Shown here piece by piece: positions 3,321-22,739 of a DNA stretch of 64,000 bases. Position 1 is the first letter of the stretch, and each line of letters opens with the position of its first letter. The position numbers were made by a program, and so were the translations under genes. Below the pieces are notes generated by a model. That model saw only the letters and a list, made by a program, of their open reading frames with translations. It ran no database searches and was not told the DNA's origin. The stretch is from Ignavibacteriales bacterium (lineage in GTDB: Bacteria; Bacteroidota; Ignavibacteria; UBA10030). The stretch spans positions 10,146 to 74,145 of the forward strand of contig JAPLFR010000010.1 in the NCBI GenBank assembly GCA_026390575.1. The letters run 5' to 3'.

Positions 3321-4115
3321 TTAGCGCTTCTTCAAGAAGGTCATAATTCGTTCATTGAACTCCTGAGTGTTCTCCAAATTGCTCATATGAGCGGCATAAG
3401 GCAGTATGTGCAGTTCTGATCCGTCAATCATAGTATGCATCGTTTGTGCATCGGAGGGCGGCGTTAACTTATCATGCTCTCCGACAATAATGCATGTTGG
3501 AATGTGAATAGAAGAAAGAGCCGGTGTTGTGTCGGTGCGGGAACCAAGCGCAAGTAAAGTTCCACAAATACCGCGCGGAGAGTTCGAGCAAATTATTTGT
3601 TTGATGAATGCAATAACGTTTGGATTCCTCTCGAAGGTCTTGTCCCAGAAAATGTTTTTCACAAAGTCCTCTGCAAATGCTGGAACGCCTGCCGCCTTAA
3701 CTGCCTGCATAGTCACCGTGCGGTTTATTTTTGCGGCGTTTGTGTCAGGTTCGCTTTTAGTATCGCACAGAATTAAGCCGCAGACTCTCTCCGGATATTT
3801 TTCGAAGGTGCGCAGTGCAATGTACCCCCCCATGGAAAGTCCGCAGAGTATAGCTTTAGTGATGAAAAGATGGTCGAGTAATGCGACTAAATCTTCGACG
3901 AAGAGTTCTATTGTAAATTGACCATCGCCGACATCGCTCTCACCGTGACCGCGCACGTCATATGCAATAGTATGGATATTGTTTGGCATGACATTCATTT
4001 GCGGTTCCCACATTTCGTGGCTGAATGGAAAACCATGAATGAACACAACCGGTAAACCTTGCGGCATACCGCGTTCTTCGTAGTTGATTGCAATATCGTT
4101 GAGGATGACTTTCAT
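3321..4115 (-). CDS. Alpha/beta-fold hydrolase
   Basis: 264 aa with an HG oxyanion region (VVFIHGFPFS), the nucleophile elbow GLSMGG and a C-terminal His (AAHMSN). It has a 4-nt start/stop overlap with the upstream glycosyltransferase gene. Confidence 0.85.
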   Translation of the reverse strand: MKVILNDIAINYEERGMPQGLPVVFIHGFPFSHEMWEPQMNVMPNNIHTIAYDVRGHGESDVGDGQFTIELFVEDLVALLDHLFITKAILCGLSMGGYIALRTFEKYPERVCGLILCDTKSEPDTNAAKINRTVTMQAVKAAGVPAFAEDFVKNIFWDKTFERNPNVIAFIKQIICSNSPRGICGTLLALGSRTDTTPALSSIHIPTCIIVGEHDKLTPPSDAQTMHTMIDGSELHILPYAAHMSNLENTQEFNERIMTFLKKR

Positions 4116-6748: not shown

Positions 6749-7333
6749 TTTGCTTGTCTTGGATTAGAAATTATGACTGAAATTAACGAATAATTCTACT
6801 CATACGCCAGTTAATTGATGAAAATATACACAATATTTTTCAAAATGGAACCTTTTTAGGGTTTGAACCGTTCACATATATGAACCTACTTGCCATTCCC
6901 CATGGTGGGTGGTTCGATAGCCTCCCTAACCCCTGGCGTTTGGTAGTGCGTCAGGGGTTTTATTTTGTCTTGTCCTCGACTATTTGCCTATGCGATCAAC
7001 TAGTTCAAGGAGAAGACGATGAAAACCAACGATTATCTGGATTGTATATAACTCCAGAAGGTCGAAAATTTGATTCAACCATTTAGGAAACGAGTTCTTT
7101 CGTGTTGACCATCTAAGAATACGGCAGCACGTGAAAAATCCGAATATAAATCATCATCAGTCGATTTAGACCTACACTTCGACTCTCTTTTTCGACTTCA
7201 GTATTGATGGTTCTTGAGACGGGGGGAAAGGTAGTCTGCCGTCTAAAGAAATATTGCAGGCAGACGAACTGACTGAACACGTTTTTACTTAGAAGTGTTT
7301 GCGAACTTTTTAAAATAAGTGTTGTACTGTTTT

Positions 7334-12050: not shown

Positions 12051-12363
12051 AAAAAGAGTGACATCTCTCAATTTGCTTGCGTTATGCGACCAAGGGAATG
12101 ATCAATATCCGCTTATTTGAAATATTCTGTTGAAAATTATTATTTGAGTGATAAATATCGAAAATTGAGAGAGAAATGAGTGATATAACTTAAAAGCTCA
12201 TGGAATATGAAATTTTTAAATGAGATAGAATCGGCGAATAATTGTAAGACGAGAGTATGAAATAACCCTCGTTTTCTTCCCGCCAGAAGAAGGCGGGATT
12301 CTGAAAACGACAAACGACTTAGTTTCGCCCTGATGGGCTCACTAAGTCGTGGCGTTTTCGAAG

Positions 12364-12438
12364 CGGGGCCGACGAGGATCGAACTCGCGACCTCCTGCGT
12401 GACAGGCAGGCGCTCTAACCAAGCTGAGCTACGACCCC
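12364..12438 (-). tRNA. tRNA-Asp(GUC): tRNA-Asp (anticodon GUC)
   Basis: The reverse complement reads GGGGTCG-TA-GCTCAGCTTGGTTAGAGC-G-CCTGC-CTGTCAC-GCAGG-..-GTTCGATCC-..CGGCCCC-G. Confidence 0.9.
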
Positions 12439-13083
12439 GTGATTATTACTTAATTAAGTTAATGGATAATGTCTCGCGAAGCAAGAATATTTTATTATGA
12501 AAGAAAAGATTGATAGTAGGATTCTTAAAATAGGCTAAAAATATAAAAGCAGTTTTTTATGTGTTGATCAACCTGGAATGTAATAGAATAAAATACACAA
12601 CGTTTTCCTCGTTTAAGGTAGGGAAACCATCACGATTTATGGCGCTTTTCAATATTCTGCACCTCGACATTGGAACAAAGGAGTAGTGTACAACTATACA
12701 AAATTACTATAATCCTTTAATAAAGATTTTACAGTATGGAACATCAATGATGAGATACAAATAATTTGATGCAAAACTCAATAGGGAAAGAAAAAAGAGT
12801 GTCCTTGCGTGTTTGTATCTTATGTAATGGTCAAACTTAAAGTCTAGTTGTCTAACTTTGAAATGATGGAAAAAAGCGGTTTTGAGTTGATAATAACAGC
12901 AGGCGATAGAACATGCTGAAAACATTGAAGAAAAATGATTTTTTTGTTGACATTTGATTAAAAAACAACATATATTTCGACAAGATTTATTGAACATTGA
13001 AAGAATGAATATCAGTTCTCGCTTGTTCAGGTATTGTTTTACTAAACAATTCACAAACAATTAATCATTAAAAAGGGACTCCT

Positions 13084-13371
13084 ATGGGAAAAGCAATGAC
13101 CAAAAGTCAGATTGCAGCTCATCTTGCAAGCAAGTTTGAGTTGAAGAAAAAAGATGCTGTGGCGATATTAGAAGAGATTGCAGGCTTGGCATATCGGGAA
13201 GCGAAAAATTCTTTTACGTTACCAGGCATTGGTAAATTGGTTCTGGTTGATCGTAAAGCCCGTATCGGACGCAATCCGGCTACTGGAGCACAAATAAATA
13301 TACCTGCAAAAACGGTTGTAAAGTTCCGTGTTGCGAAGGCTGCAAAAGAAGCTGTCCTTGCTCAGCATTGA
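13084..13371 (+). CDS. hup: HU-family nucleoid-associated DNA-binding protein
   Basis: 95 aa with the beta-arm signature GIGKLVLVDRKARIGRNPATGAQINIPAKTVVKFR. RBS AAAGGGA lies upstream. Confidence 0.9.
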   Translation: MGKAMTKSQIAAHLASKFELKKKDAVAILEEIAGLAYREAKNSFTLPGIGKLVLVDRKARIGRNPATGAQINIPAKTVVKFRVAKAAKEAVLAQH

Positions 13372-17152: not shown

Positions 17153-17566
17153 ATGAAATCTTTCACGGAATATCTCTGGTTCAACTCGAAAAAGCACCGC
17201 GAGTATATAAACATAACCTCTGAAGTGGAGCAGATTCTGGCAAAGAGTGGAATTAAAGAGGGAATGATTCTCGTATCAGCGATGCATATTACAGCTGGTA
17301 TCTATGTCAATGATGCAGAATCAGGATTGATTCAAGATATCGATGCATGGTTGGAAAAGCTTGCACCGTTTAATCAAGAATACCGCCACCATCATACGGG
17401 GGAATCGAACGGCGATGCGCATCTGAAAAGTCTTCTTATTCATCATGAAGTCATTGTACCTGTAACAGACGGCAAATTAGATTTTGGACCATGGCAGCAA
17501 ATCTATTATGCCGAGTTTGACGGCCAGCGGCGGAAACGCGTCATTGTTAAAGCGATGGGCGAGTGA
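17153..17566 (+). CDS. yjbQ: YjbQ/UPF0047 family protein (secondary thiamine-phosphate synthase)
   Basis: 137 aa with the family blocks [18 protein letters not shown] and [13 protein letters not shown]. Confidence 0.85.
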
Positions 17567-17615
17567 TTCGATAAAAACGAATAACCATTGTTCAAACAAC
17601 ATCAGTCAAAATGTT

Positions 17616-18521
17616 ATGCCAATCAAAAAAACACACGTTATTGAATATGGTATTTTTCGATGTTTCGGTTTCATTGTCAGATTACTGCCATTGCATCTTG
17701 TTCACAAAACGGGCTTTGCCCTTGCTCGATTAGCATATCCATTGTTGAAATCGCGTAGAGAAGTAGCGCTCCGAAATCTCCGCAATGCCTTTCCGGAAAT
17801 GGACGCACAAAGGCGAGAACAAATTGCGCTTCACTCGTTCCAAAATATTGGGGCAACATTCATTGAATTACTCTGGTCTCAGAATTTAACAAAAGAGCTT
17901 ATCAAGCAGAGAGTATGCATTGATAATTACGATTTGTTAGAACGGCTTCGAGAGAAGAAAAAGGGTATTGTTTTTCTCACAGCGCATTTCGGCAGCTGGG
18001 AACTTGCGATCCAAGCAATCTCTGTCTATACGGATATGCCAGTGTGCACCATTGCAAAATCCCAATCGAATGCACTCGTTGACCGCCTTATCAATCGGTG
18101 GCGGGAATTGTTTGGACTCAAAATCGTTCCCATGGGTGTGAGCGTTCGTGAAATTCTACGGACGCTTCAGCAGGGAGGAATTGTTGCGCTTGCCGCCGAT
18201 CAAACAGCTCCGAAGGAAAGTGTTTCGGTAGAATTTTTTGGACGACAAGTGCCGACATTTCAAGGTCCGGCTGTTTTTTGTCTGAAGACAGGCGCTCCTA
18301 TTGTTTTAGGGTGTACTGTCCGGCAAGAAAATGGAAATTACAAAATGCATTTGGTACATGTGCCGAGTGATGACTTAATGGGTTCTTCAGATGAAAATGT
18401 TTTTGAACTGACTCAACGGCAAGTTCGCATGACAGAGGAAATTATACGGCACTATCCGGAACAATGGATGTGGATGCATAAACGGTGGAAGCATGTTCCA
18501 GATCGAGTGGGGGGCGTGTAG
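17616..18521 (+). CDS. LpxL/HtrB-family lipid A (Kdo2-lipid IVA) late acyltransferase
   Basis: HX4(D/E) motif in TAHFGSWEL, with family-like N- and C-termini. The track start 17484 would overlap yjbQ by 83 nt, so I chose the ATG at 17616. Confidence 0.8.
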   Translation: MPIKKTHVIEYGIFRCFGFIVRLLPLHLVHKTGFALARLAYPLLKSRREVALRNLRNAFPEMDAQRREQIALHSFQNIGATFIELLWSQNLTKELIKQRVCIDNYDLLERLREKKKGIVFLTAHFGSWELAIQAISVYTDMPVCTIAKSQSNALVDRLINRWRELFGLKIVPMGVSVREILRTLQQGGIVALAADQTAPKESVSVEFFGRQVPTFQGPAVFCLKTGAPIVLGCTVRQENGNYKMHLVHVPSDDLMGSSDENVFELTQRQVRMTEEIIRHYPEQWMWMHKRWKHVPDRVGGV

Positions 18522-19561
18522 TGGCGAAGTCATTTAACAAAATCTTAGTTATTCAGACTGCATTCATTGGCGACGCGATTCTCACACTGCCTCTTCTCCA
18601 AGCCCTTAAGCTCAATTATCCGCAATCTTCAATTGATGTCATTGTCGTTCCACGGGCAGCGGAAATATTTGCTCATCATCCCGCCATCTCCAAGATTATC
18701 CAGTATGATAAACGCGGAAGTGATAAAGGATTAAAAGGTTTGTGGCGGCTCAGAACCAAACTCAGTGCGCATCATTATGATCTGATTATTGTTCCTCATC
18801 GATCTTTACGAAGCGCGCTTCTTACTTGGCTCTTGAAACCAACGCTCAGCGTCGGATTTGATAGAAGTGCGGGACCATGGTTATTTAAGAAAAGAGTTCG
18901 CTATAATCCTTCAGATCATGAAATTGAACGGAATCTTTCATTGTTGAGTCCGTTGAAACTTCCTCCACATGAGGCCGAATTACCGCGGCTCTATCCTTCA
19001 AATCAGGATGCGCAAATTATCGATTCTCTTATGAATGATAATGGTTTGAACCGGTATACAAATATTGTAGCAATAGCCCCTGGCACGATATGGAATACGA
19101 AACGCTGGCCGGCAGAAAGATTCGCTTCCCTCTGTAAACAAATCGCTTCAGAAAACGTTGCTCTTGTTCTTGTCGGAGGAAGTGAAGATGAGGTATTGAG
19201 CAAAGAAATCATAGAGATTGCACAAGCAGCACATGTATTCAGCGTTGCAGGCAAGCTTTCACTCCTTCAGTCTGCCGAGTTGATTCGTCGCTGCAACGTA
19301 TTGATTTCGAACGACAGCGCACCGATGCACATTGCCGTTGCTGTGGGAACCCCGGTCGTTGCCATCTTTGGAGCAACAGTTCCCGAATTTGGCTTTGCAC
19401 CGCGCGGACCTAGGGATGTTGTGATAGAAACAAAGGGACTTCAGTGCCGTCCATGTTCAAGCCATGGCGGAAATATGTGCCCTATAAAAACATTCGAATG
19501 CATGCTGTCAATTACTCCAGAAGTTGTTGTGAGTAAAGTGAGGAAATTTCTTCAAAAGTAA
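18521..19561 (+). CDS. GT9-family LPS heptosyltransferase
   Basis: KILVIQTAFIGDAILTLPL near the N-terminus and SNDSAPMHIAVAVGTPVVAIFG near the C-terminus are typical of RfaF/WaaC-like enzymes. The GTG at 18521 abuts the upstream stop; the track ORF begins at 18485. Confidence 0.8.
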   Translation: MAKSFNKILVIQTAFIGDAILTLPLLQALKLNYPQSSIDVIVVPRAAEIFAHHPAISKIIQYDKRGSDKGLKGLWRLRTKLSAHHYDLIIVPHRSLRSALLTWLLKPTLSVGFDRSAGPWLFKKRVRYNPSDHEIERNLSLLSPLKLPPHEAELPRLYPSNQDAQIIDSLMNDNGLNRYTNIVAIAPGTIWNTKRWPAERFASLCKQIASENVALVLVGGSEDEVLSKEIIEIAQAAHVFSVAGKLSLLQSAELIRRCNVLISNDSAPMHIAVAVGTPVVAIFGATVPEFGFAPRGPRDVVIETKGLQCRPCSSHGGNMCPIKTFECMLSITPEVVVSKVRKFLQK

Positions 19562-19656: not shown

Positions 19657-19685
19657 TTGAAATATTAATAAGAAATTATTATAAT
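19657..19685 (+). promoter_or_regulatory. Consensus sigma70-type promoter for the retron-like ncRNA/operon
   Basis: TTGAAA (19657-19662), a 17-nt spacer, then TATAAT (19680-19685). The predicted TSS, 7 nt downstream, falls on G19692, the first base of the a2 repeat. Confidence 0.6.
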
Positions 19686-19691
19686 TCTGAT

Positions 19692-19864
19692 GAGCCGCAT
19701 CGCTTTCTAGCTCTAATTGCTCAGTTATGAATTGAGCATGGACGGTGTTTAGCCATCCACTAAAATGTTTCATGACATACTAGGCGAGAGAAAAGCTCCC
19801 GCCTTGCGCTGCTTCGGCTTGAGCTTTTCTCTCGCCTCGCAGAAAGTAGAAAGCGGTGTGGCTC
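19692..19864 (+). ncRNA. Retron msr/msd-like non-coding RNA
   Basis: a2 GAGCCGCAUCGCUUUCUA (19692-19709) pairs over 18 bp with a1 UAGAAAGCGGUGUGGCUC (19847-19864). The only two non-Watson-Crick positions are G-U wobbles, and only on the + strand. G19710 follows a2. There is a small hairpin at 19718-19738 and a long 17-bp perfect hairpin at 19782-19798/19821-19837. Confidence 0.7.
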
Positions 19865-19881
19865 TCCTTATTTGAATTCCT

Positions 19882-20787
19882 ATGTCTACCATACCTTTTC
19901 CAAATAAATTTCTAGAAAAAATAAAGAAGGTGATCTTGAATAAAGACACTTTCTTGAAATCTGATTCAATAATAGTTTTTGCCTGCGGAGCTAAACCAAA
20001 CGTTACTAATCCGGGCGGTCGAGATAGAGTTATCGAATATGCTGAAAAAAATCTTACACAGTTTCAATTTTTAATGGCGGAACGTTTTTTTTCATTTTTC
20101 CAGAATCATGATAGAATAGATTTGTTATCGTTAGAAAATAAGTTAGCAGAATTTTCTGATTGTATTCTAATTATTCTGGAGAGTGAGAGCACTTTTGCAG
20201 AACTCGGTGCTTTTACTAATAGTGATGAATTAGCTAAGATCGCTCTAGTTATTAATGATATTAAGCATGATAAGAGTGATTCTTTTATTAATCTTGGGCC
20301 ATTAGCTAAAATAAATAAAATATCAAACTTTCGACCAGTTATCCAAGCTAACATGGAAAGCATCTTGACTGTAATTTATGAAGTCCAAAAAAGACTTGAA
20401 AAAATTGAAAGAAAAAATAACATCCGGCTTGATATTAGTACATATGAGAAGTTTTTAGCATGTTCACGGAAGGCAAGAACATTTTTACTTTTGGATCTAC
20501 TGGCATTATTCTCTCCGTTACGCTATTCAGAATTGATTGAAATATTACACTTTATTTATGGAGATCATAGTATTGATATTAATCTTGAAATGGGACTCTT
20601 AGCTGCATTTGGGTTTGTAAGCAAACAAGATGATTACTATTTCCGAACATTAGGTGATAGTAAATTATTCTTCTTCTTCCAAGGTTTGAACATTATTCGA
20701 TTCCGATCAGATATTATTAATTGCTACTTCAAGCTCCGTAAATCTCGTGAACGTCTTGAAATATTAAAGGGACGTACTATCCATTAA
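19882..20787 (+). CDS. Putative retron effector: N-terminal nucleoside 2-deoxyribosyltransferase-like Rossmann domain plus C-terminal wHTH-like domain
   Basis: 301 aa. The pattern SIIVFACGAKP ... LAEFSDCILIILESESTFAELGAF resembles NDT-like/RcaT-type effectors. The C-terminal FLLLDLLALFSPLRYSELIEIL looks like a winged helix. It lies 7 nt upstream of the RT gene. The assignment rests on pattern only. Confidence 0.55.
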   Translation: MSTIPFPNKFLEKIKKVILNKDTFLKSDSIIVFACGAKPNVTNPGGRDRVIEYAEKNLTQFQFLMAERFFSFFQNHDRIDLLSLENKLAEFSDCILIILESESTFAELGAFTNSDELAKIALVINDIKHDKSDSFINLGPLAKINKISNFRPVIQANMESILTVIYEVQKRLEKIERKNNIRLDISTYEKFLACSRKARTFLLLDLLALFSPLRYSELIEILHFIYGDHSIDINLEMGLLAAFGFVSKQDDYYFRTLGDSKLFFFFQGLNIIRFRSDIINCYFKLRKSRERLEILKGRTIH

Positions 20788-20794
20788 GAGAATT

Positions 20795-21739
20795 ATGGCT
20801 AAGGAATTATTAGATATAATATCAGAATTTCTAGGATTCGATCGAAATGAAGTTTTAGATATTGTTAATAAGGCACAGACTTCATACAAAAAATATAATA
20901 TTCGCAAAAAGAGAGGAGGTACACGAATCATCCATCATCCATCAAAGCAGACTAAAGCTATTCAACATGCATTGATGGAGACAGTATTAAGCAAACTACC
21001 AATACATGAGTGTGCGTACGCATATCGTCGTGAATTTAGATCTCCTTTGCGTAGAAACGCAGAAAAGCATTCTTTATTTTCTTATTCTATCAGAATCGAT
21101 TTCAAGGACTTCTTTCCCTCAATTAAGCCTAATGATTTGTTCTCTGTAATCGACAAAAATTCATCAATGGAATTAGATACATCGAATAAGGAGTGTTTAA
21201 CAAAAGCTTTATTTGTGAAGAGCAAAGACAAAAAACAAGGATTAGCGGTTGGTGCGCCATCATCGCCATTGATTAGCAATATTGTAATGTATGATCTCGA
21301 TCAAGAAATCCAAAAAATTGCTGGATCAATTTCGAGAAATAACGCTTACACGAGATATGCAGATGATTTGGTTTTCTCGACCAATAATAAAGGAGATTGT
21401 CGAAAATTTTACAATAAAGTAAAATCTCTTATTAAGAAAACGCAATCACCACGATTGATAATTAAAGAAGATAAGACAGTGTATTTATCTAGGGGAACAA
21501 GAAGAATGGTTACAGGAATTACAATCACGCCTGATCAACATATTTCATTAGGTCGCAGGAGAAAACGTTATATTAAAAAACTTATATTCGATTACAAGAA
21601 TAATAAGATAGAACCTAAAATTAAATCTTATCTTGAAGGATTCATTGCGCACATACTAGATGTTGAACCTGATTATTACAATAAACTTGTGATTAAATAT
21701 GGTGGAGAAACACTAGATCGGATTCGGAAACATAAATAA
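20795..21739 (+). CDS. Retron-type reverse transcriptase
   Basis: 314 aa with KKRGGTRIIHHPS, NAEKH (NAxxH), IDFKDFFPSI, GLAVGAPSSPLISNIVM, YTRYADDLVFS (YADD) and RRMVTGITI (VTG). There is no maturase, endonuclease or other extra domain. Confidence 0.88.
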   Translation: MAKELLDIISEFLGFDRNEVLDIVNKAQTSYKKYNIRKKRGGTRIIHHPSKQTKAIQHALMETVLSKLPIHECAYAYRREFRSPLRRNAEKHSLFSYSIRIDFKDFFPSIKPNDLFSVIDKNSSMELDTSNKECLTKALFVKSKDKKQGLAVGAPSSPLISNIVMYDLDQEIQKIAGSISRNNAYTRYADDLVFSTNNKGDCRKFYNKVKSLIKKTQSPRLIIKEDKTVYLSRGTRRMVTGITITPDQHISLGRRRKRYIKKLIFDYKNNKIEPKIKSYLEGFIAHILDVEPDYYNKLVIKYGGETLDRIRKHK

Positions 21740-21837
21740 AAATCATTTGCCTTTGGTAATAAGCATAAAACCGTATTTATGAATCATTTGAATCTCTTCG
21801 AAAACTTCTCTACATTAAAGTACGAACCAGCATTCTT

Positions 21838-21917
21838 GCGCCCGTAGTTCGAAAATTGCCCGCGAACGCAGTGAGTGGAGGCAATTTTCAGAATCCCGCA
21901 AACGAAGTGAAGCGGGA
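21838..21917 (+). repeat. tRNA-Arg(CCG) 5'-end fragment plus TCCCGC/GCGGGA hairpin repeat
   Basis: GCGCCCGTAG (21838-21847) is identical to the first 10 nt of the tRNA at 21938 and is followed by a TTCGAA T-loop-like stretch. AATTTTCAGAATCCCGCAAACGAAGTGAAGCGGGA (21883-21917) is related to the 47-bp repeats at 51933 and 52019. Confidence 0.6.
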
Positions 21918-21937: not shown

Positions 21938-22011
21938 GCGCCCGTAGCTCAGCTGGATAGAGCGACAGCCTCCGGAGCTGTAGGCCAGGCGTTCGAATCG
22001 CCTCGGGCGCA
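21938..22011 (+). tRNA. tRNA-Arg(CCG): tRNA-Arg (anticodon CCG)
   Basis: GCGCCCG-TA-GCTCAGCTGGATAGAGC-G-ACAGC-CTCCGGA-GCTGT-AGGCC-AGGCG-TTCGAAT-CGCCT-CGGGCGC-A. Confidence 0.9.
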
Positions 22012-22049
22012 CAGAAATAATGAATTTATGAACTGATTTAGGAATCGAC

Positions 22050-22739
22050 ATGCTTAAACCGCAGAAAAAAATTTCCAGAAGAGAAATCAAAGAAGATAAA
22101 CTCGTAACCAAGTATTTTGAAGCACGCCAATGGATAGATGAAAACACCAAGATCCTTTCCTATGTTGGAATCGGGATTGCAGGCCTGGTGATCATCGGTT
22201 TCCTCTGGAGTAAAAGCCGGGCTGATTCAAATCTCAAGGCAACAGCCATGCTCGCGAAGGTAACGCCGTACTATGACGAAGGAAGATATGATCTTGCTAT
22301 CAACGGTGTTCCGCAGGAAGGTACTCAGGGATTGCAGGCTGTGGTAGATGAACATGGCAGTACGCAGGCAGGTGAAATTGCAAAGCTCTATTTAGCAAAT
22401 TCCTACTTCGCACTGAAGAGTTATGATAAAGCTCTGAACACGTATGATGATATCAGTGTATCTGATAAGATGATCACGGCCTCTGCGTATGCAGGAATGG
22501 CGGCTTGTTATGAAGCGAAAAGCGATTTCAGCCATGCAGCTTCTTATTTTGAAAAAGCGGCATCGAAAAATATGACGGTTATGCAGGGACCGGAAAATTT
22601 GCAGAGATCTGCGACAAACTATGCAGCGGCTGGGAAGAAGGAAAAAGCCATCGAACTTCTTCAGACCCTAAAAAAAGAATTTCCTACTTCGCCGTATGCC
22701 CGCGATGTTGAACGTCTCATAGCTGAATACAGCGTATAG
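22050..22739 (+). CDS. Membrane-anchored tetratricopeptide-repeat protein (YfgM-like)
   Basis: 229 aa with a basic N-terminus, one TM segment (ILSYVGIGIAGLVIIGFLW) and TPR-like helical repeats. Confidence 0.7.
   Translation: MLKPQKKISRREIKEDKLVTKYFEARQWIDENTKILSYVGIGIAGLVIIGFLWSKSRADSNLKATAMLAKVTPYYDEGRYDLAINGVPQEGTQGLQAVVDEHGSTQAGEIAKLYLANSYFALKSYDKALNTYDDISVSDKMITASAYAGMAACYEAKSDFSHAASYFEKAASKNMTVMQGPENLQRSATNYAAAGKKEKAIELLQTLKKEFPTSPYARDVERLIAEYSV

Follow-up and report, generated by a model that had tools for sequence, protein, structure and literature searches.

What kind of protein is encoded by the ORF that begins at position 19882 of the 64,000-nucleotide stretch of Ignavibacteriales DNA analyzed here (the window), and what role might it play beside a reverse transcriptase (RT) gene? 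In an earlier note, made from the sequence alone, the product was described as an effector candidate in which a nucleoside 2-deoxyribosyltransferase (NDT)-like N-terminal domain is joined to a winged-helix C-terminus, a combination of the kind found in type II retron effectors; it was added that the protein would define a new retron effector class if it did not match the St85/Ec86 effector family. The computational analysis reported here makes it very probable, on the combined grounds of sequence, structure prediction and analogy with studied retrons, that the product is the toxic effector of a complete type II-A1 (Sen2/St85-like) retron on the chromosome. By analogy this effector would be an N-glycosidase-type toxin that is kept inactive by the complex of RT and msDNA and set free upon phage infection. 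The features of the locus are collected in Table 1.

Table 1. Features of the retron locus and its flanks (nucleotide positions refer to the window, effector domains are given in residues)
Feature	Position	Strand	Evidence or remark
LpxL-like lipid A acyltransferase	17484-18521		upstream flank
LPS heptosyltransferase II	18485-19561		upstream flank
sigma-70-like promoter candidate, TTGAAA-17 nt-TATAAT	19657-19685	+	11/12 consensus positions
Retron ncRNA (msr-msd)	19692-19864	+	inverted repeats, fold z-score, covariation
a1 inverted repeat, 18 nt	19692-19709	+	
Candidate branching G, within TAGC	19710	+	
msr hairpin 1	19718-19738	+	
msr hairpin 2	19740-19758	+	
msd stem-loop, 22-nt stem arms	19782-19837	+	
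a2 inverted repeat, 18 nt	19847-19864	+	
Effector, retron type II-A (St85/STM3845 family; RcaT-like)	19882-20787	+	NF038232, NDT_II-A, PDB Ec86 match, AF2, Foldseek
Effector domains	N-terminal helix 8-19; NDT-like ~25-175; winged-helix ~196-266; then two C-terminal helices		
Retron RT (St85 family, clade shared with type I-A), 314 aa	20795-21739	+	NF038233, PADLOC, RVT_1, motifs
tRNA-Arg(CCG)	21938-22012		downstream flank
TPR protein	22050-22739		downstream flank

According to the ORF listing, the effector reading frame is intact and runs from an ATG to a TAA stop codon without interruption, encoding 301 residues; its coordinates agree with those of the earlier note, and it contains the peptides quoted there, SIIVFACGAKP (residues 29-39), FSDCILIILESESTFAELGAF (residues 91-111) and FLLLDLLALFSPLRYSELIEILHFIY (residues 201-226). 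The public gene call of the same protein (P0001) comprises 283 residues and starts with TTG 19936, which is preceded by the Shine-Dalgarno-like sequence AAGGTG; no clear Shine-Dalgarno sequence was seen upstream of ATG 19882. The 18 additional N-terminal residues that result from the ATG start can be aligned with homologues and form a confidently modelled helix (residues 8-19) in the AlphaFold prediction, and for these reasons alignment and model favour ATG 19882 rather than TTG 19936 as the true start of the effector.

Profile searches and the predicted structure place the protein in the retron St85 family (type II-A), of which it is a divergent member rather than the founder of a new class. 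The equivalog model NF038232 of NCBIfam ('retron St85 family effector protein', curated cutoff 100 bits) was matched with 173.6 bits (E 6.5e-51) over profile positions 3-275 of 277, and this refutes the idea, put forward conditionally, that the protein defines a new retron effector class. The PADLOC model NDT_II-A (PDLC02928) was matched with an E-value of 6.5e-48 over positions 5-271 of 279; both matches are far stronger than chance would give. A collection of 5.8 billion proteins yielded 311 homologues; of these, all 120 matches listed carry the precomputed Pfam family PF28093, which another annotation names 'STM3845', the designation of the Salmonella St85 retron effector gene. Wherever the matches listed bear a functional name it reads 'retron St85 family effector protein', and the closest non-self relative among them is 61% identical. 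A sequence search of the PDB retrieved the Ec86/Eco1 retron effector with an E-value of 6.5e-13 (7v9x, 7xjg, 8qbk, 8qbm, 9jm0) together with an E-to-A mutant of the same protein (8qbl), and this effector is the sole significant PDB match by sequence as well as by fold. With the local Pfam-A copy no significant match was obtained for the whole effector or for either domain; DUF6187, which scored below cutoff (E 0.007-0.017), was disregarded. PF28093, the family's own Pfam entry, was seen only in precomputed annotations, and the Pfam NDT family (PF05014/PF15891) gave no match at E-values up to 10 with either the whole effector or its N-terminal domain.

The AlphaFold2 model of the effector, calculated from a 50-sequence alignment, has a mean pLDDT of 93.3 and a pTM of 0.88. 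It contains an alpha/beta domain with parallel strands at residues 30-35, 61-65, 94-98 and 121-126 and a helix at residues 102-111 that includes E107; the strands at 30-35 and 94-98 and the Glu-containing helix at 102-111 fit the secondary structure suggested in the earlier note. In the C-terminal domain of the model, helices 196-210, 215-226 and 234-242 are followed by a beta-hairpin (246-249/252-255) and then by two C-terminal helices. The succession of three helices and a beta-hairpin is, in the model, a winged-helix topology, an assignment that draws on the DSSP topology and on the alignment of the whole chain with the Ec86 effector. The comparison of the model with the PDB by Foldseek, also proposed beforehand, revealed three significant matches, all of them Ec86/Eco1 effector chains (7xjg_J, 8qbk_E, 8qbl_E), which were aligned over their full length with a probability of 1.00, a TM-score of 0.57 and E-values ranging from 2e-12 (7xjg_J) to 5e-11. 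NF038232, NDT_II-A, the AlphaFold2 model and the Foldseek matches to Ec86 thus agree with the original description of an NDT-like N-terminal domain and a winged-helix C-terminus of the type II retron effector kind. When residues 1-178 were modelled separately (pLDDT 82), the domain superposed on the Ec86/Eco1 chains with TM-scores of 0.68-0.71 and deviations of 2.4-3.2 Å. Since the whole-chain TM-score is lower than that of the N-terminal domain, the difference lies mostly in the two-domain arrangement, and the whole-chain value of 0.57 suggests that in the predicted structure the two domains are arranged otherwise than in the Ec86 effector.

How closely the N-terminal domain is related to classical NDTs was examined with the same domain. 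Its Foldseek top 50 included the NDTs 9emx, 8pqs/t/q/r and 8qc0, the CMP N-glycosidase MilB (4ohr, 4jem, 4jel) and a designed phosphodeoxyribosyltransferase. The NDT and MilB matches are weak (E 0.04-0.1, TM 0.43-0.46) and are interleaved with flavodoxins, TIR domains and SEFIR domains. This weak similarity agrees with the view of Mestre et al. that the NDT family and the retron proteins are 'only distantly related' (PMC7736814) and with the superposition of the Ec86 effector on the L. leichmannii NDT 1F8Y, for which an RMSD of 4.99 Å over 128 residues was reported (10.1101/2023.08.16.553469). Classification of the effector as a member of the classical NDT family was rejected, as the Pfam NDT profiles did not match. 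By both profile and model comparison, the term 'NDT-like' is justified by the retron family to which this protein belongs and not by a direct place within the NDT family.

In the Ec86 effector, catalysis is ascribed to E106, which together with D69 clamps the bound ligand (10.1101/2023.08.16.553469), and the PDB entry 8qbl is titled 'inactive effector (E106A)'. When residues 29-288 of Ec86, as given by the PDB alignment, were added to the effector family alignment, Ec86 E106 corresponded to E107 of the window effector, a residue invariant in 51 of 51 sequences. The Glu in FAELG to which the earlier note had drawn attention is therefore the homologue of the Ec86 catalytic residue, and the alignment marks E107 as the candidate catalytic Glu of the effector. 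Further Ec86 residues, E65, E84, D92 and E99-S100, align with E67, E85, D93 and E100-S101, and the SFI..GP motif aligns with S134-P140; all these positions are invariant or nearly so, and E100, within ILESES, is likewise conserved. Invariant throughout the 51 sequences are G36, R47, E67, L82, E85, A106-F111 (AELGAF), S134-I136 (SFI), G139, P140 and P212, a set that provides a compact list of targets for mutagenesis. The counterpart of Ec86 D69 is S71, which occupies a variable column (D in 14 sequences, E in 13, S in 8 and other residues in 16).

Effector relatives and RT genes occur together. In 79 of 80 genome loci with effector relatives, distributed over many phyla, an RT gene is located directly downstream on the same strand; in the sole exception the locus is cut by the end of the contig. 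The RT gene in the window starts 7 nt 3' of the effector stop codon. Its product scores 313 bits, against a cutoff of 235, with NF038233 retron_St85_RT ('retron St85 family RNA-directed DNA polymerase'); the best PADLOC model is RT_II-A (E 8e-103), the second-best RT_I-A (3e-86), and Pfam RVT_1 is matched with 6e-20. The motifs NAXXH, YADD and VTG, defined as hallmarks of retron RTs (PMC7736814), are present as NAEKH (residues 88-92), YADD (188-191) and VTG (239-241). Relative to the profiles, both the effector ORF and the RT ORF are full length.

The 320-nt gap 5' of the effector contains a promoter-like site and the ncRNA. The promoter candidate, which is the top-scoring site of the region, ends 6 nt before a1; it stands as a consensus match only, and such matches are no commoner in the region than in shuffled sequences. 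Its position directly upstream of a1 would be compatible with the start of a retron transcript. The a1/a2 stem and the msd stem are nearly perfect, as revealed by the inverted-repeat search and by folding, and the fold of the ncRNA has a z-score of -7.5 relative to shuffles. At the msr hairpins (19718-19738 and 19740-19758) the sequence GGACGGTGTTTAGCCATCC is present. An equivalent layout is found 5' of the effector in seven related loci (L001-L004 and L008-L010), whose a1/a2 repeats differ wholly in sequence from those of the window and nevertheless retain their complementarity and the G that follows a1. In an alignment of eight ncRNA sequences, G19710 is invariant, the msr hairpin GGAYGGTGTTWAGCCRTCC is kept and compensatory changes occur in 32-33 of 39 pairs. 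The proportion of paired cells in the alignment is 89%, in contrast to 65% after column shuffling and 43-50% with slid partners, and the observed covariation values were reached in none of 500 shuffles. As the loci were chosen for having an a1/a2 repeat, helix 1 is biased by selection, whereas helices 2-4 were unselected. An Rfam search with the ncRNA matched no retron msr family; a match of the msd hairpin to 'mir-14' on both strands, at 24 bits far below the gathering score of 53, was set aside as an artefact of long hairpins. Neither a CCWGG nor a GATC site was found in the ncRNA, including the msd. On the evidence of the nucleotide sequence and its comparison with related loci, the promoter-like site, the msr-msd ncRNA, the effector and the RT constitute a complete chromosomal retron cassette.

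Type II-A retrons, as defined by Mestre et al. (PMC7736814), encode an effector with an NDT-like domain and a winged helix and comprise three subtypes. In II-A1, exemplified by Sen2/St85, the RT belongs to clade 1 and the ncRNA-RT module is common to type I-A; in II-A2 a frameshift splits the NDT-like domain from the DNA-binding domain, the latter being fused to the RT; and in II-A3, to which Eco1/Ec86 belongs, the RT is of clade 9 (PMC7736814). Among RTs of solved structure in the PDB, those of the type I-A retrons Ec83 and Ec78 match the window RT with 165-176 bits and that of Ec86 with 92 bits. The gene order in the window is msr-msd, effector, RT, which is the order stated for Sen2 (msr-msd, ORF, ret; PMC11701397). 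RT similarity and gene order indicate subtype II-A1 (Sen2-like). The predicted assignment is based on the greater closeness of the RT to type I-A RTs, on RT_I-A as the second PADLOC model, on the effector being contained in one ORF and on the Sen2 gene order. Subtype II-A3 was rejected because the Ec86 RT scores far below the type I-A RTs, and II-A2 because both effector domains lie in one unbroken ORF and the RT is encoded separately.

A dip in GC content extends from approximately 19.5 to 21.7 kb. The cassette (19657-21739) has 33.2% GC, compared with 41.7% and 43.7% in the two 10-kb stretches that adjoin it. It is flanked by housekeeping genes of a diderm bacterium, with LPS genes on one side and a tRNA on the other. 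The tRNA adjacency was considered as a family trait and dismissed, as just 2 of 19 related loci have a tRNA in their fetched flanks. In the window the cassette is adjoined by no integrase or other mobility gene, and no direct repeats or att-like sites bracket it. On the contig of the nearest relative an excisionase-like HTH gene and a tyrosine integrase come after the retron, an arrangement that fits the horizontal spread of such cassettes.

How the retron might operate can be proposed by analogy with two studied systems. In Sen2 the toxin is RcaT, and the antitoxin consists of RT plus msDNA (10.1101/2020.06.22.160168); the toxin is triggered when phage functions act on the msDNA by methylation (Dam), degradation (RecE) or sequestration (10.1101/2020.06.22.160242). 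In Eco1, RT, msDNA and effector form filaments in which the effector, an N-glycosidase, hydrolyses NAD(P)+, and the trigger is a phage Dcm that methylates the msd stem (PMC12673091); depletion of adenine nucleotides has also been reported for Eco1 (PMC12673091, 10.1101/2023.08.16.553469). In the corresponding scheme for the window retron, the RT would prime from the 2'-OH of G19710 and copy the msd stem-loop into msDNA by reverse transcription. Together with the RT, this msDNA would bind the effector and keep it inactive, so forming a tripartite toxin-antitoxin system, until a phage product released or activated the effector by modifying, degrading or sequestering the msDNA. The NDT-like domain, with E107 as the putative catalytic residue, would then attack NAD(P)+ and/or adenine nucleotides as an N-glycosidase, and this activity would arrest the cell and abort the infection.

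Some elements of this scheme may be specific to the window retron. Since the msd contains neither CCWGG nor GATC, the Dcm and Dam triggers of Eco1 and Sen2, respectively, cannot act through their usual sites, and the phage trigger predicted here is probably a different one. Filament assembly and NAD+ hydrolysis may not be transferable from Eco1, because the Eco1 effector, the one relative that has been characterized both structurally and biochemically, is only ~26% identical to the window effector and its RT is from a different clade. That the trigger is one hitherto undescribed for type II-A is proposed tentatively, as the less probable outcome, and the same reserve applies to a change in the substrate preference of the effector, suggested by the presence of Ser in place of the ligand-contacting D69 of Ec86. 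If both were true, the system would offer a handle on the biochemistry of RcaT-type toxins.

A reading in which the system resembles the Eco1 type (II-A3) in every detail, with RT-RT and effector-effector filaments and with a phage cytosine methyltransferase that acts on the msd stem and thereby elicits NAD+ hydrolysis, draws on the Eco1 effector as the only solved homologue and on the conservation of its catalytic Glu. Arguing against it are the much closer relationship of the RT to type I-A RTs than to the Ec86 RT, the lack of CCWGG in the ncRNA and the msr-msd, ORF, ret gene order, which is that of Sen2 (PMC11701397). Moreover, the type I-A RT of Eco7 is devoid of the N-terminal helix that is essential for Eco1 dimerization (PMC12673091). 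Taken together, these observations render a faithful copy of Eco1 unlikely. Far less probable still is that the cassette is an inactive relic of a horizontally acquired retron. Such a fate would be in line with the absence of a neighbouring mobility gene in the window, when one is present beside the retron of the nearest relative, and with the lack of a clear Shine-Dalgarno sequence upstream of ATG 19882. A relic would, however, hardly be expected to retain effector and RT ORFs that are full length by their profiles, all of the invariant family residues and RT motifs, and a1/a2 and msd stems that are nearly perfect.

The protein might also be viewed as a housekeeping nucleoside 2-deoxyribosyltransferase or salvage enzyme that has acquired a regulatory DNA-binding domain and whose RT neighbour is incidental. 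The classical NDTs and MilB among the weak Foldseek matches of the N-terminal domain (TM ~0.45) would be in keeping with such an enzyme, which is nonetheless extremely improbable: the Pfam NDT profiles do not match, the linkage of effector and RT in nearly all loci spans many phyla, the protein scores above the cutoff of a curated equivalog model of retron effectors, and a low-GC insertion (0.33 versus flanking values of 0.42-0.44) that has LPS genes on one side and a tRNA on the other is unlike the setting of a core metabolic gene. The toxic effector of a type II-A1 retron remains the reading that the evidence best accommodates.

For the annotation of the genome the main value of the analysis is that 19657-21739 can be correctly designated as a predicted complete type II-A1 retron defence system of an uncultured diderm bacterium. 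The family also gains a divergent member, which is no more than 61% identical to the others among the matches listed; for RcaT of Sen2 and Eco9 (II-A1), the mechanism of toxicity 'remains unclear' according to a 2026 study (PMC13645617). Being compact and having a nearly perfect msd stem, the retron could in addition supply RT-DNA for editing tools, a prospect that is generic to retrons.

A comparison with known systems proceeds from the most remote to the closest. Classical NDTs such as that of L. leichmannii (1F8Y; PF05014/PF15891) and MilB may share with the window effector the flavodoxin-like alpha/beta fold and the position of the catalytic Glu on the helix that follows the central strand; unlike the effector, classical NDTs are not known to carry a wHTH domain or to be partnered by an RT or ncRNA. 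The Eco1 (Ec86) effector of subtype II-A3 (7v9x, 7xjg, 8qbk/l/m, 9jm0) is the sole solved homologue and can be aligned over its full length; its domains were described as an NDT domain and a winged HTH domain (10.1101/2023.08.16.553469). The window effector has in common with it the ES, AELGAF and SFI..GP motifs, the Glu at position 107 (E106 in Ec86) and the winged-helix C-terminal domain, and differs from it in most of its residues, including S71 in place of D69. The Eco1 RT is of another clade than the window RT, and the Dcm site CCWGG is lacking in the window msd. In Retron-Sen2 (St85) of Salmonella Typhimurium, the II-A1 retron with the RcaT toxin, a Dam trigger is described, which could not act at its usual site in the window msd, as this contains no GATC; moreover, the host of the window retron is not an enterobacterium but an uncultured diderm bacterium with ~43% GC. 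In its other traits the window cassette resembles Sen2: effector and RT both pass the curated models of the St85 family, the effector combines an NDT-like domain with a winged helix, the RT falls into the clade that II-A1 shares with type I-A according to Mestre et al., and the order of the cassette matches msrmsd-rcaT-rrtT.

The public gene call of the effector, P0001, comprises 283 residues and starts at a TTG codon at position 19936 that is preceded by a Shine-Dalgarno-like AAGGTG. Translation from the ATG at 19882, which has no obvious Shine-Dalgarno sequence, adds 18 residues to the N-terminus relative to the TTG start; these residues align with the homologues and form a helix in the structure model. 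The database start of the effector is probably mis-annotated.

Start assignment also affects the two LPS genes upstream of the retron cassette, which encode an LpxL-like acyltransferase and a heptosyltransferase II. As listed, their ORFs share 37 nt. Because the list extends each ORF to the farthest upstream start codon (TTG and GTG), the true starts of both ORFs probably lie further downstream. Farther upstream in the window, a stretch of about 1 kb is AT-rich (GC approximately 0.35), contains no ORF and shows no notable repeats; it harbors a tRNA and precedes the gene of an HU-like DNA-binding protein.

Coordinates of features in the window and of tRNAs at two related retron loci
Sequence	Feature	Position	Strand	Remark
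Window	AT-rich stretch	12051-13083
Window	tRNA	12364-12438	minus	inside the AT-rich stretch
Window	HU-like DNA-binding protein gene	13084-13371		AT-rich stretch upstream
Window	LpxL-like acyltransferase ORF	17484-18521
Window	Heptosyltransferase II ORF	18485-19561
Window	msd hairpin, 'mir-14' match	19779-19840	both
Window	Near-copy of tRNA-Arg(CCG) 5' end	21837-21850
Window	tRNA-Arg(CCG) 5' end, copied segment	21937-21950
L014	tRNA-Arg	7023-7099
L017	tRNA-Arg	3377-3451

A comparison with Rfam gave a 'mir-14' match to the msd hairpin on both strands, with 24 and 21.5 bits against a gathering score of 53. The match, sub-threshold on either strand, is a false positive that arises because the hairpin is long and near-perfect.

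On the other side of the cassette, the 5' end of tRNA-Arg(CCG), TGCGCCCGTAGTTC, has a 14-nt near-copy (13 of 14 nucleotides identical) between the stop codon of the reverse transcriptase gene and the tRNA; its position is shifted upstream by exactly 100 nt relative to the tRNA itself. The near-copy could be a scar left when recombination or integration took place at this tRNA in the past, or a product of chance; at the left edge of the cassette, no repeat matching it was detected. Among 19 related retron loci, only L014 and L017 have a tRNA in the flanks that were fetched, tRNA-Arg(TCT) and tRNA-Arg(CCG), and the neighbor of the cassette in the window is likewise a tRNA-Arg. The agreement may be coincidental, or these retrons may weakly favor tRNA-Arg loci.

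At 2839-4409 of L081, the contig that encodes the nearest relative of the effector (P0002, 61% identity), a homologous retron has downstream neighbors that encode an HTH_17 (excisionase-like) protein and a tyrosine integrase, which suggests that this retron is carried on an integrative element. The copy in the window, by contrast, is adjoined by no mobility genes.
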